From Eledone cirrhosa (lineage: Eukaryota), in assembly GCA_964016885.1 (NCBI GenBank), contig OZ024753.1, positions 13,330,001-13,394,000 of the forward strand: a DNA stretch of 64,000 nucleotides, given 5' to 3'. The notes under the pieces are model-generated. The model searched no databases, was not told the origin of the DNA, and worked only from the letters and a program-made list of their open reading frames with translations. Positions 36,634 to 59,201 of the stretch are shown here, one piece after another. The first letter of the stretch is position 1; the number at the start of each line of letters is the position of its first letter. The position numbers and the translations under genes were made by a program.

Positions 36634-37614
36634 ATGGTGTTTATCTTAACAAATGAAAATGAAATACATTTAAAAGAATTCAATCTTTACGATTTTTTTC
36701 GATCTCTGGAGTCGCCAGGTCAATTTTCTTTACAATTCAATATTTGGAAATCATTTGGATTTTATGAACGGATTTCATATGTTTCTCATTTCTTCATCCA
36801 TATTTTGTTATTGCTTGACTGCCTACGTTTCTTTATATTTCTTTATTTGAAGATCCATACAGGTAGCTCTGGATTACTTGTTGTATCATCTTTCATAATG
36901 TTTACAAAGACTTTTCACTTAATACGCGTAGTTTTTAATTTAATGCGATCGTTTGATATGTTTGAAAAACCAGTCTTCATTGAATATAAAATACCAATTG
37001 ATCGACGGAAATTATTTATGAAACAATGGCAAAAATACAAGCGCTTTTGCTGGATTATTTTTCTCCTCCATAACATAATTGCTATTTTCACTTATATGGT
37101 CATATGGCCGTACTCTGAAAGAAACGAAGTCAGTTTTCTAAGTGGTCTTTCGTATCCAGTGTCACCAACTAGCCCCTTTTTACTGCCAATTCTGATAACA
37201 AATTATATCTTGCACATGTTGATGAACATTACAATGAGCAATAATTTAATAACTAATAGTTTCCTTTTAGATGTGATAGAAAAAGAGTTTGATAAACTTA
37301 CTGAAGACTTTCGGCAAAATATGTACAGCATAAATCATGGGAAGTATACAAATAAGAGTAAAGTTAAAAGCTCTTTACTGTTAGACATTTCAAAGAAACA
37401 TAGACAAATTTGTAAACTTTTGGCAATCTGGAATACCAACACTCAACTAAGTAACGCAACATTTATAATACTTACCCACATTGGTATTTTTTGTATAATA
37501 CATTACTTTGAAAAATTAAAGAGTTCTGAGCGAATGTTTATGGCATTTATACTTTGTGGAACTCTATTTGGACTGTTAGCGTACTTTTATCGGGGTATAC
37601 AGATATATATCAAG
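36634..37614 (+). CDS. Gustatory-receptor-like (GRL/7TMIC) protein, coding exon 1 (327 aa)
   Basis: Non-repetitive ORF with AAAATGG start and about 6 hydrophobic segments. GRL-like motifs F..L...G.F, L.D.LRF, I.KEF..L...F and KH.QIC.L. Donor AAG|GTGAGT, phase 0. Confidence 0.85.
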
Positions 37615-37710
37615 GTGAGTTATCGTTCTTTTATCGGGGTATACAGATGTATATCAAGGTGAGTTATCGTTCTTTTATCGGGGTATACAGATGTATGGCA
37701 AGGTGAGTTT
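37584..37710 (+). repeat. 44-bp x3 tandem repeat spanning the exon 1 splice donor
   Basis: CAAG|GTGAGT with GT at 37615, 37659 and 37703. Confidence 0.95.
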
Positions 37711-38276
37711 TCATTTAATCATCTATTATTTTTTTTTGGCGGTGGATTGGCAGTATCAGTAGAGCGACGGAAATATGTTTTACAGCATAGAGTTGTATAT
37801 ATATATATATATATATATATATATATATATATATATATATATATATGTGTGTGTGTGTGCATATATATATATGTGTGTGTGTGGGTGTGCATATATATAT
37901 ATGTATGTGTGTGGGTGTGCATATATATATATGTGTGTGTGTGTGTGTGCATATATATATATATATATATTACGATAATACTTTTAATTATTGTGTGTCT
38001 AATTTGCCTTCCATGGGCTATAGATTCCATACACTGGTGGTTTTTCCCTGTTTGACTGATAACACACTATCTCTCTCTCTCTCTCTGGTGTGTTATCTTT
38101 TCCACATATTGTATATATATATATATATATATATGTGTGTGTGTGTTTGTGTGTGTGCGTGTGTGCATATATATATGTGTGTGTGTGTGTGTGTGTGTGT
38201 GTGTGTGTGTGTGCATATATATGTGTGTGTGTGTGTGCATATAGACATATATATATATATATATATATATATATAT

Positions 38277-38430
38277 ATATTTATTAAAATAACAGATTAA
38301 AGTTTAAGCAAAGAATCGCTGCTTTCACCCTTAACGGGATCTTCTGAAACTCAGAAGTTTCAGAAGATCCCGTTAAGGGTGAAAGCAGCGATTCTTTGCT
38401 TAAACTTTAATCTGTTATTTTAATAAATAT
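38277..38430. repeat. Perfect palindrome (75-bp arms, 4-nt loop) containing a hammerhead-like motif
   Basis: Arms 38277-38351 / 38356-38430. CAGAAGA-T-CCC-gttaa-GGG-T-GAAA lies next to the centre. Confidence 0.92.
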
Positions 38431-39519
38431 TTGCTCTACCGTTCTTATATATTTGATATATATTTATCCTTATCGAGACCTCTTTGGATTTTAGTCTTCA
38501 AGTTTATTATTATTACTCTATATATATATATATATGTGTGTGTGCATATATATATGTGTGTGTGTGTGTGTGTGTGTGTGCATATATATATATGTGTGTG
38601 TGCATATATATATATATGTGTGTGTATGCATATATATATATATGTGTGTGTGTGTGCATATATATATATATATATATATATGTGTGTGCATATATATATG
38701 TGTGTGTGTGTGTGCATATATATATATATATATGTGTGTGTGTGTGTGCATATACATATATATGTGTGTGTGTGCATATATAGATATAGATATATATATA
38801 TATGTGTGTGCATATATATATAAATATATATGTGTGTGTGCATATATATATATATGTGTGTGAGTGTGCATATACAGGATGCGGACGATATTTGTTCGCA
38901 AGATTACTGTCTAGGAAAAAGTAACACAGTAGTTTTATTTTTTAAGATATTTTTATCAAACTTGGGTCAGTTTGTCTTCATTACTTGTTCTTTCGATATC
39001 ACTCGATATCACAAATTATTGAAGAAAGAGGAAAGAAAAAAGAAAGACAGAGAGAAAACAGATGAGGGGATAATATAGCTAGTAGAAGTATAGAGCGAAA
39101 GAGAATTGATCAAGGAAAGAGAGACAAAGAGGAATAATTTTTATAGTGTAAAACATAGGGAGGGATGAATTATATATATCTATACAGAACTATACATTTG
39201 GGCATAGCTTTGCGAAAGAGTAAACTCGAATCTTTGATCAATGAATAAATCAAAGAAAGAGTTTTACAATAGACTGGAAGCACTCAACTGATTTAGTTTT
39301 CTGGAGTTATTAATTTTTAATTTATTCATTGAACTTTGTTTAACCTTTAAGTATATATATATATATATATATATATATATATATATATATATGCAAAGAC
39401 AAATTCACCTCATGGACGAGAATGCAAGGACTCCTCCTCTTTGTTTCAGCCGCGGATGGCTAACATAACCCCATCTCCCCCATCCCCCCCCCCTGCGCCC
39501 CACCGCTCCCACACTCCAG

Positions 39520-40770
39520 GGTCGCTCTAACGAGGTTGTAGAAATGCTTGAACGTAAGGAGGTCGATGTTTGTTGTATTCAAGAGACCAGGTGGAGGGGT
39601 GGGTCTGCTAGATTCATCGTGGGTAAAGAACGATGCTATAAGCTTTTCTGGGTAGGAAATGACAATGGGCTGGGTGGAGTAGGAATCATGGTAGCAGAAA
39701 AGTGGGCAGTTAAGATAATAGACGTAAATAGAGTGAACGACAGAATAATTAAAATAAAACTTGTCCTCAATAGCACTACGGCGACAGTAATATCTGCGTA
39801 CGCACCCCAATTCGGACTGCCCGGCACTATAAAAGACAGATTCTATGAGACACTGATGCTCACTACCTCCCAAATAACCGACAGTGACTATATAATTATT
39901 GCTGGCGACCTAAATGGTCACGTTGGACAACATTGTAACGGCTATGACGGAATCCATGGAGGCTATGGGTTTGGTACTAGAAATGAGGAAGGCTCCAGAA
40001 TCCTGGAATTCTGTGACGCAAATAACCTAACTATATGTAACACTAACTTCAAAAAACGAGACAATCACTTGATCACCTATAGATCGGGGAACACACAAGC
40101 CAGGTAGATTATATCCTTACCAGGAGACGCGACAGAGTGTCTGTTGTAAACACTAAATCCCTCCCCCATGAAGAATGCACGTCTCAACATAGACTCATAA
40201 TTAGTGACCTCATAGTCAGGACGAGACGTATTCGACAACAGAAGAGGACTATCCTCAGGAGAAAAATATGGAAATTAAAGGACCCCACAGCTAGTCATAA
40301 ATTTAAAAGCATATTACTTGATGCTTTTGATAGTAAGGAAGAGCAATTAGAGTCGTACAATATAGAGGAATTCCTGAAAGCTAACCTGCTGAAGGCGACA
40401 GATGAAACCTGTGGCTAGAGCAGGCCTATAGGCAGGAGGAGAGTAACTTGGTGGTGGATCAGTAAGGTGGAGAGGTCAATCAAGGCCAAAAAGCAGGCTT
40501 GGAAAGCATGGCGGGATGGGGGAAGTAGAGAAGACTATCAAGTGGCCAGGAGGGAAGCTAGGAGACAAGTGTACTTCGCAAGAAGGGAAGCAGAGGAAAG
40601 AAAGTTCAAGCATGTTCTACAACGCGAGGACCAAAAACGGGAGGTGTTCAGGATTGCTAGGCAATGTGTCAAGGAAAACAGTGATATTGTCGGGGAGAAG
40701 TGTGTCCTAAATGATGATGGTGTACTTGCCATCACTGACGCTGATAAGAAGGTAGCTTGGAAGTGTCATA
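39520..40770 (+). mobile_element. RTE LINE fragment (APE endonuclease and linker), disrupted
   Basis: DVCCIQETRW, ISAYAPQ, AGDLNGHVG, GYGFG.RN.EG, QHRL, VTWWW. Contains stops and frameshifts. Confidence 0.92.
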
Positions 40771-41018
40771 TGCATATATTTGTATGTAGCTGTATGTTAA
40801 CGGAACCCTGCCCAACTGTGAGTGATAACATTTCTTATTTTTCATTTTTATTTTTATTTTTATTTTTACTCTCATTTTTATGTTTATTTTTATTTTACTC
40901 TTTTCTTATTTTACTCCTTTTACTTTACTCTTTAAACTCCTCCCAACTTATGGTATGCCCACATATATTCTTCTGTTTTGGCTTTGTCAATGCTTGTATA
41001 CTATGTATTTACTCTTTA

Positions 41019-57978: not shown

Positions 57979-58238
57979 CAGGGCCAGCACTACCATATAG
58001 ACAAATTAGGCATCTGTCTAGGGCGCTGATTTCAGGGGGCACATTTCTCCAAATCAACAACAATTCTGAAAAATAAATTTCAGTTTTATTGAGGGTCCTT
58101 TTTTATCCTGGTTTATGGGGGAAAATAAATGTTGAAAAAAAGAGTTTTTTTTATTTATTGTTTATAAATTTTGAAATTGATATTTTCCTGGGGAATCTAA
58201 CCTTGCCTAGGGTGCCAGATAGTCTTGTACTGACCCTT
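57979..58238. mobile_element. Possible hAT-like MITE
   Basis: Imperfect TIRs CAGGGCCAGCAC / GTACTGACCCTT and subterminal CTAGGG. No clear TSD. Confidence 0.45.
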
Positions 58239-58279
58239 CATACGTGACCTTTATGTTACCCACTAATTCCTTCTCCTAG

Positions 58280-58470
58280 AATGATGTCCTACACTATAGG
58301 TTTGGCAGTGGAGACTTCTGGTGTCCTTGACCCTAGGGCTACCTCCCTACTCACTACCATAGGTGCTGAGATGGCCAGCCGCGGGTGTGAGCCTCGTGAG
58401 TTGGAATGGCACTTCCGGCGAATCTCCCTCACCATCCTCTGGGGAAACGCCTTTTCCATTCTGTCCACCA
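58280..58470 (+). mobile_element. CRE-like LINE 3' end (RLE C-half)
   Basis: LAVETSG....A..LL..IG......EPRE...HFRRISL.I..GNA.SIL.T. Confidence 0.8.
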
Positions 58471-58987
58471 CCCCTACTACCACCACCACTGCTACTACTA
58501 CCACCACCACCACTATTACCACCACTACTGCTACTACTACTACCAGCACCACCGCCACTACCACCATCACCACCCCTAATACCACCACCATTGCTACTAC
58601 TACTACCATCACCACCACTACTACCACCACCATTGCTACTACTACTACCACCACCATCACCACCACCACTGGTACTAATACTACCACCACTACCACCCCT
58701 ACTACCACCACCACCACTACGACCACCATCACCACCACCACTATCACCACCACTACCACCATTGCTATTACCACCACAACTATCACCACTACTACCACCA
58801 CCACATCACCACTACTACCACCACTACCACCACTACTACCACCACCACCACCCCTACCACCACCCCTACCACCACCACTACTACCACCACCCCTAGTACC
58901 ACCACTACTACCACCACTACCACCACCACCATACCCCTACCACCACCACCACTACCACTACCACCCCTACCACCACCACCACTACTA
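58467..58987. repeat. (ACC/ACT)n trinucleotide tract
   Basis: Direct reading. Follows the CRE-like 3' end. Confidence 0.95.
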
Positions 58988-59075
58988 TTTTATTTATTTT
59001 GTATTTCTTTTGGTTTCGTTTGCTCCAATTTCCTTCTTTTAAAAACTGACAACATTTTCCTAACACTAATTTCAG

Positions 59076-59201
59076 ATGTTTGGAAGTTTTATATCATTTG
59101 CCATTCTGGCGTACCAAACTATGAGCAGTGGTCCACCTCACAGCTGTGTACCGATAGAATCTTGTACTTTAGGCGTGTACAATGAAACAGCTCATATTTA
59201 A
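59076..59201 (+). CDS. GRL-like gene last coding exon (MFGSFISFAILAYQT...AHI*)
   Basis: Branch-like CTAAC/CTAAT and TTTCAG acceptor. SFAILAYQT matches the TYhhhhhQF spacing of TM7b. TAA at 59199-59201. Confidence 0.85.
   Translation: MFGSFISFAILAYQTMSSGPPHSCVPIESCTLGVYNETAHI

Follow-up and report, generated by a model that had tools for sequence, protein, structure and literature searches.

The closest described counterparts of the gene reported here are the gustatory-receptor-like (GRL) genes of non-arthropods, already known from molluscs as well as from annelids, Nematostella, Trichoplax and Strongylocentrotus (PMC7746228). They encode proteins of about 400 amino acids and combine a long first exon with three phase-0 introns towards the 3′ end, the layout regarded as ancestral for gustatory receptors (GR) and GRLs (PMC6175461). 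The motif in their seventh transmembrane segment (TM7), (T/S)Yhhhhh(Q/K/E)(F/L/M) with h for a hydrophobic residue, is diagnostic, though not definitive (PMC7746228). In insects, Drosophila Gr39a places tandem long first exons, subject to gain and loss, on three short final exons (PMC2204066), and Blattella Gr60a-m follows the same alternative-first-exon design (PMC6175461). Octopus chemotactile receptors (CRs) are candidate ionotropic chemoreceptors too, expanded and fast-evolving, and are pentameric derivatives of nicotinic acetylcholine receptors (nAChR) (PMC11526382). Here we analyse a stretch of 64,000 nucleotides from Eledone cirrhosa (contig OZ024753.1, positions 13,330,001 to 13,394,000 of the forward strand), called the window in the following, and a four-exon gene within it. 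On the evidence of its sequence this window gene is probably an intact octopod GRL of the 7TMIC type, encoding a subunit of a ligand-gated cation channel in chemical sensing. It is a divergent new member of a known family.

The initial annotation had joined four phase-0 exons with GT-AG borders into an open protein of 421 amino acids, and this stands on re-reading. The features, in window coordinates, are:

36634-37614, + strand: exon 1, 981 nt, 327 codons, from the ATG through an open frame to the donor AAG/GTGAGT; its product comprises the N-terminus and TM1-TM6, the predicted ligand-binding body, whose model matches odorant receptors (OR), GR and the co-receptor Orco
49808-49876, + strand: exon 2, 69 nt, 23 codons, acceptor CAG and donor GTAAGA; predicted cytoplasmic end of TM6 and loop
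57664-57753, + strand: exon 3, 90 nt, 30 codons, acceptor CAG and donor GTATGT; predicted TM7a and hairpin
59076-59201, + strand: exon 4, 126 nt; predicted pore helix TM7b, a 26-amino-acid tail and the stop
59094-59120, + strand: TM7 motif S-F-hhhhh-Q-T in exon 4

Every donor is a GT and every acceptor an AG behind a pyrimidine tract, all junctions are in phase 0, and the spliced gene would run through 421 codons to a TAA with zero internal stops. Of the 30 paralogous open frames compared by alignment, 27 place the exon-1 donor identically, seven residues past an invariant glycine. For the small exons, the window was scanned on both strands for AG..GT candidates of fitting length and for terminal candidates, which were scored with paralog exon peptides only, taken from six loci for exons 2 and 3 and from four loci for exon 4. 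Each of the three came first, exon 2 among 921 candidates (z 5.7), exon 3 among 640 (z 9.4) and exon 4 among 2,454 (z 5.6). These ranks, together with the same four-exon layout at 8 paralogous loci, contradict a chance assembly of exons. Exon 3 of the window gene exists in one copy genome-wide. Contigs from three public runs of a single sample, from which the window DNA may itself derive, cover exon 1 and continue into intron 1, and the underlying reads therefore represent DNA. Since the contigs of two of the three runs span exon 4 with zero differences, its tail is not an assembly slip.

The gene almost certainly belongs to the GRL (7TMIC) family. This assignment, made in the initial annotation, is supported by the fold, language-model features, the Pfam matches of paralogs, the three phase-0 introns and, less clearly, the TM7 motif. 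An AlphaFold2 model of exon 1 (TM1-TM6, with TM7 being read from the sequence) was built on a 23-row alignment of genomic relatives and reached a pLDDT of 75.4; a fold from the single sequence (pLDDT 51) was discarded. Against 48,161 solved chains, eight rows reach Z>=8, and each of them is an insect OR, GR or Orco structure (Z 12.2-17.1; 232-289 residues aligned, rmsd 4.0-4.6); the row following this group falls to Z 6.5. Among the chains listed, none of the G protein-coupled receptors (GPCR) exceeds Z 6.1 or aligns over more than 138 residues, and a rhodopsin-like seven-helix fold was rejected on this comparison. The comparison of the predicted fold with Orco and GR structures, proposed along with the initial annotation, thus turned out in its favour: TM1-TM6 resemble the insect entries 8v02, 7lic, 8v3d, 8z9a, 8vc1 (BmGr9), 8jme (Gr64a) and 8jm9 (Gr43a), at 6-12% sequence identity between the window gene and insect OR/GR/Orco channels. 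The top ten Foldseek rows are all OR or Orco entries, none of them at E<=0.001.

The structural match would imply an inverted topology with the N-terminus inside and the C-terminus outside. N-x-T sequons in the C-terminal tails of the window gene and of genes on contig C3 fit an outer C-terminus, a post hoc observation in two lineages. Hydropathy displays a hydrophobic run at about residues 345-392 with a T-P break, only suggestive of a split TM7a/TM7b. Language-model features (ESM Atlas) place exon 1 closest to 7tm_7 clusters (0.94-0.95). A profile search with 7tm_7, likewise proposed, leaves the window gene itself without a match, whereas 13 of 23 aligned relatives match PF08395 (7tm_7) at E<=0.1 (best E 2.6e-13). 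The neighbours on the same contig (C13) exceed the PF08395 cut-off, and the relatives align to the window gene, the nearest of them at E 2e-9. At the level of layout, the ancestral GR/GRL exon arrangement is shared. Counting Y to F as conservative, the TM7 motif fits the published form at 8 of 9 positions (PMC7746228), with S, hhhhh and Q as published and a final T that departs from F/L/M; S or T, five hydrophobic residues and Q are likewise found in the non-arthropod GRLs, and SpurGRL1 displays the same change from Y to F (PMC7746228).

Beyond the genome itself, close relatives are scarce. Word-based homologue searches with exon 1 and with the 5-row and 23-row alignments, covering near lengths only, gave none at threshold, and among 1.84 billion representative proteins there are zero close relatives at E<=1e-10, which fits the earlier expectation that such a gene is easily missed by annotation. 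The full HMMER search of representative proteins yielded two matches, 23-25% identical, and these two public proteins (P0001, P0002) group with a two-first-exon locus on contig C29, not with the window gene. The search for paralogs, another check proposed earlier, did succeed, with relatives on C13, C3 and C29. No description of cephalopod GRLs was found in the main texts searched, the heat map in Figure 1 of PMC11526382 being one place that may list octopus GRs; the excerpts of PMC11682238, PMC9998090 and bioRxiv 2026.10.26.761908 hold no relevant passage.

The motif and the tail had been called unusual, and this is true in part. The change from Y to F in the motif and a pair of cysteines in the tail are peculiar to the window gene, as is W-N at the G-G position of exon 3. 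The Q-T ending of the motif is not, for it occurs in 7 of 8 terminal exons found in the genome, the paralogs reading TY or SY...QT; nor is a tail with a sequon, as three C3 loci have 17-18-amino-acid tails that carry N-x-T sequons. The 26-amino-acid tail of the window gene contains the two cysteines and an N-E-T sequon. Threonine at the predicted gate position is thus a family-wide trait, and the residue at this position affects ion selectivity in Orco (PMC7746228). Compared with non-arthropod GRLs, the differences lie in the T (instead of F, L or M) that ends the motif in the Q-T octopod exons and in the two-cysteine tail of the window gene. The eighth terminal exon, that of gene B (L035, C13:13005310-13005396), reads T-Y-V-V-A and then leaves the motif, by what looks like a small frameshift; it is apparently a pseudogene or an assembly error.

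Far from being the lone gene of the initial annotation, the window gene is the last one, on the 3′ side, in a cluster that includes a probable alternative-first-exon array. A profile scan over three contigs (514 kb of C13, 500 kb of C3, all 49 kb of C29) found 37 open frames; 27 of the 30 longest examined are intact first exons with a phase-0 GT at the same place. Altogether there are at least 27 intact first exons and nine sets of 3′ exons, one of them without exon 4. The order on C13 is gene A, gene B (both four-exon genes), the first-exon array, its shared exons 2-4 and, last, the window gene, which has separate 3′ exons:

C13:13020164-13305326: array, 285 kb (L014-L019, L022, L030, L047, L050, L063, L065)
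C13:13282184-252: shared exon 2 of the array
C13:13302335-424: shared exon 3 of the array
C13:13305276-326: shared exon 4 of the array
4371-4570 of the window, no strand: assembly gap of 200 N between the shared 3′ exons of the array and the window gene, the only gap in the 514 kb of C13 examined

Sixteen first exons, 12 intact and 4 broken, are spread over about 260 kb of the array. The 12 intact ones lie on the same strand with donors TCG/GTAAGT, and blastn and exon scans detected no copies of the shared 3′ exons between them, in sequence free of gaps. At the DNA level the array first exons agree to about 95%, so any 3′ exons duplicated along with them could hardly escape notice. Next to the intact shared exons lies a truncated first exon, an indication that it is the first exons further upstream that use the shared set. 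The only other copy of array exon 3 (L138, C3:362901301-362903392, 2.1 kb) is a dead orphan that contains a stop and lacks a donor. Taken together, the 12 intact first exons are likely each to splice, from a start of their own, onto one shared set of three exons. Use of the window-gene 3′ exons by the array was considered and rejected: the array has its own exons 2-4, with a stop 61 kb upstream.

The 12 intact copies differ by 160 replacement and 27 synonymous variants at a mean dS of 0.04, corresponding to dN/dS of 1.6-1.9 (p 0.02-0.002) in a model without gene conversion that leaves out the four broken copies. Variable columns are not significantly concentrated on the outer pocket side (42/101 versus 40/129, p=0.13, in 9 of the 12 copies). 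The pairs on C3 are older and show a dN/dS of 0.35-0.59 at dS 0.7-1.0; two first exons with a common tail there have 0.40 at dS 0.72.

Each of three GRL loci within C3:69455593-69876569 combines a shared tail with 2-4 intact first exons; two of these loci are mirror images with internal assembly gaps, which makes their first-exon counts less safe. An additional first exon, broken at its 5′ end, is located at C3:69065533. The unplaced 49-kb contig C29 carries, within C29:12175-44420, one complete four-exon GRL and a second locus with two first exons and common exons 2-3, for which no exon 4 was found in the whole contig. The design of Gr39a and Gr60a-m is thus matched by the C13 array, the three C3 loci and one C29 locus. 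The window gene, unlike these, has a single first exon and 3′ exons of its own. The octopod array on C13 is young, extends over 285 kb and belongs to a mollusc, and its layout is therefore probably an independent product of the intron scaffold shared with insects.

Several observations weigh against the reading of the window gene as an intact chemosensory subunit. The gene lacks family support of its own in part of the searches: a Pfam scan of its four exons gave no family at E<=10, the family profile found no GR or OR among the sequences of solved structures (five weak unrelated rows), and the protein searches found no orthologue. The motif has F where the paralogs have Y and ends on T instead of F, L or M, and exon 3 has W-N where 5 of 6 other exon-3 types have G-G. 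Non-arthropod GRLs in general come with little functional data, one case being developmental (PMC5850775). A dead 382-nt copy of the 5′ end on contig C1 (L002, C1:299957033-299957414), frameshifted and 8.3% diverged, differs from the window gene by 4 synonymous and 27 replacement changes, with about 7 synonymous ones expected under neutrality; this comparison gives no sign of purifying selection. Finally, two repeats, on which the initial annotation was silent, adjoin the coding sequence:

37584-37711, + strand: 44-bp tandem repeat of about 3 copies across the exon-1 donor
59209-64000, + strand, ending about 230 nt beyond the window: 52-bp minisatellite, 92.7 copies in the window

The first repeat yields three donors of the form AAG/GTGAGT, after 37614 (phase 0), 37658 (phase 2) and 37702 (phase 1). 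Only the first gives 421 amino acids; the other two, out of frame and in competition with it, give 365 and 342 amino acids without TM7. The second repeat, about 5 kb long, begins 8 nt past the stop. Its unit aligns to the exon-4 coding sequence 59113-59163, including the ancestral Q-T codons, and all 45 genome matches of the unit are at this locus, so the exon-4 tail is likely to have seeded it. No AATAAA occurs between the stop and the far end of the minisatellite, which would probably place this repeat in the 3′ untranslated region.

These features could indicate a recently dead or dying GRL gene, open by luck, mis-spliced at the repeated donor or silenced, with a tail that stems from a lost stop. 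The two out-of-frame donors, the minisatellite directly behind the stop, the comparison with the C1 fragment and the loss of Y and G-G would all agree with it, and the family often has broken copies, among them 4 of the 16 array first exons on C13. Against this, none of the four exons and six splice sites is damaged across 22.5 kb of repeat-filled introns, and tails with sequons are present in the C3 paralogs as well. Under neutral decay from the time of the C1 copy onwards, the absence of stops and frameshifts would have a chance of only about 0.02, a rough figure whose indel rate derives from one event. The gene is at most 22% identical to any paralog, on a long branch that a tree by a quick method leaves unplaced, and it has nevertheless stayed unbroken, which argues that it was maintained for long. 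A dying gene therefore appears unlikely, and we regard the window gene as likely to be expressed and functional, to judge by its sequence.

A second alternative is a functional 7TMIC channel outside chemical sensing, in developmental patterning or in the sensing of internal nutrients or temperature. A single-copy gene on a long branch, unlike the expanding array, would suit such a role, for which NvecGrl1 in body patterning (cited in PMC5850775) and Gr28b(D) in heat sensing (PMC11526382) are precedents. However, the cluster shows birth-and-death turnover and an excess of replacement change, as is usual for environmental chemoreceptors, and the absence of close homologues among the 1.84 billion proteins is unlike a conserved developmental gene. 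We consider this alternative improbable. A chance chain of exons, a GPCR or another membrane protein can practically be dismissed: the window gene has no Pfam match, no Foldseek row passes E<=0.001 and helical bundles may reach Z 13 through a common arrangement, but each small exon ranks first in paralog-only scoring, the layout recurs at 8 other loci, and the eight top structural matches are all OR/GR/Orco, with GPCRs at Z 6.1 or less.

Some further observations concern other elements. By eye, open frames of the window resemble pieces of retrotransposon reverse transcriptase or endonuclease at 11054-12874 (+), 18342-19463 (+), 24580-25998 (-), about 27900-30481 (+), 39469-41042 (+) and 54450-57283. 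Elsewhere in the genome, which amounts to 3.0 Gb, 39 matches to PF14830 mark haemocyanin genes in at least five copies of seven units each, three at C1:173.74-173.91 Mb and an inverted pair at C26:21.93-22.02 Mb, the latter with an eighth, degenerate unit-like match. Octopod haemocyanin has seven units; eight are found in 6r83. Compared with one unit, 1js8, 6r83 and 4yd9, which we take to be cephalopod haemocyanins, score 644-655 bits, and 3j32 and 8tnv, presumably gastropod ones, 500 and 457. The haemocyanin thus points to a cephalopod, in agreement with the initial annotation, and probably to an octopod.

Returning to the window gene as a chemosensory GRL subunit, a mechanism may be proposed by analogy with the tetramers and gating of solved GRs and ORs (PMC11526382, section 2.3.1). 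Exon 1 would encode a body of six helices, with a small molecule bound in its outer pocket among the outer helix halves, and exons 2-4 would supply the anchor and the split TM7. Four TM7b helices, encoded by exon 4, would line the pore of a homo- or heterotetramer and open on ligand binding. In the array, varied sensor exons on one pore module would alter tuning at constant assembly; the window gene would be a self-contained unit, long diverged, on the 3′ border of the cluster. Such a 7TMIC fold would be unrelated to that of the CRs.

A second family of candidate chemical sensors has likely been overlooked in octopuses. More tentatively, and at present somewhat short of what we would call probable, this may amount to a further ionotropic chemoreceptor system beside the CRs, with no fewer than 27 GRL sensor exons, mostly on a few shared pore modules, an octopod-specific threonine gate, positive selection and an insect design reached independently. 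The window gene would then be the divergent single-copy subunit of the cluster, perhaps serving as a common partner or as a dedicated sensor. Taken alone, the window gene is an ordinary though divergent family member, GRLs being known in molluscs and the splicing design in insects, and it is the cluster that adds interest. Published work attributes cephalopod taste-by-touch to nAChR-derived receptors, and for the olfactory organ the literature consulted establishes no receptors. An expanding, apparently unannotated family of insect-type channels offers a short list of candidates for sucker and olfactory chemoreceptors. The family also bears on whether GRLs act as chemoreceptors outside arthropods, and on whether the alternative-first-exon design has been favoured time and again by the three ancestral 3′ introns.

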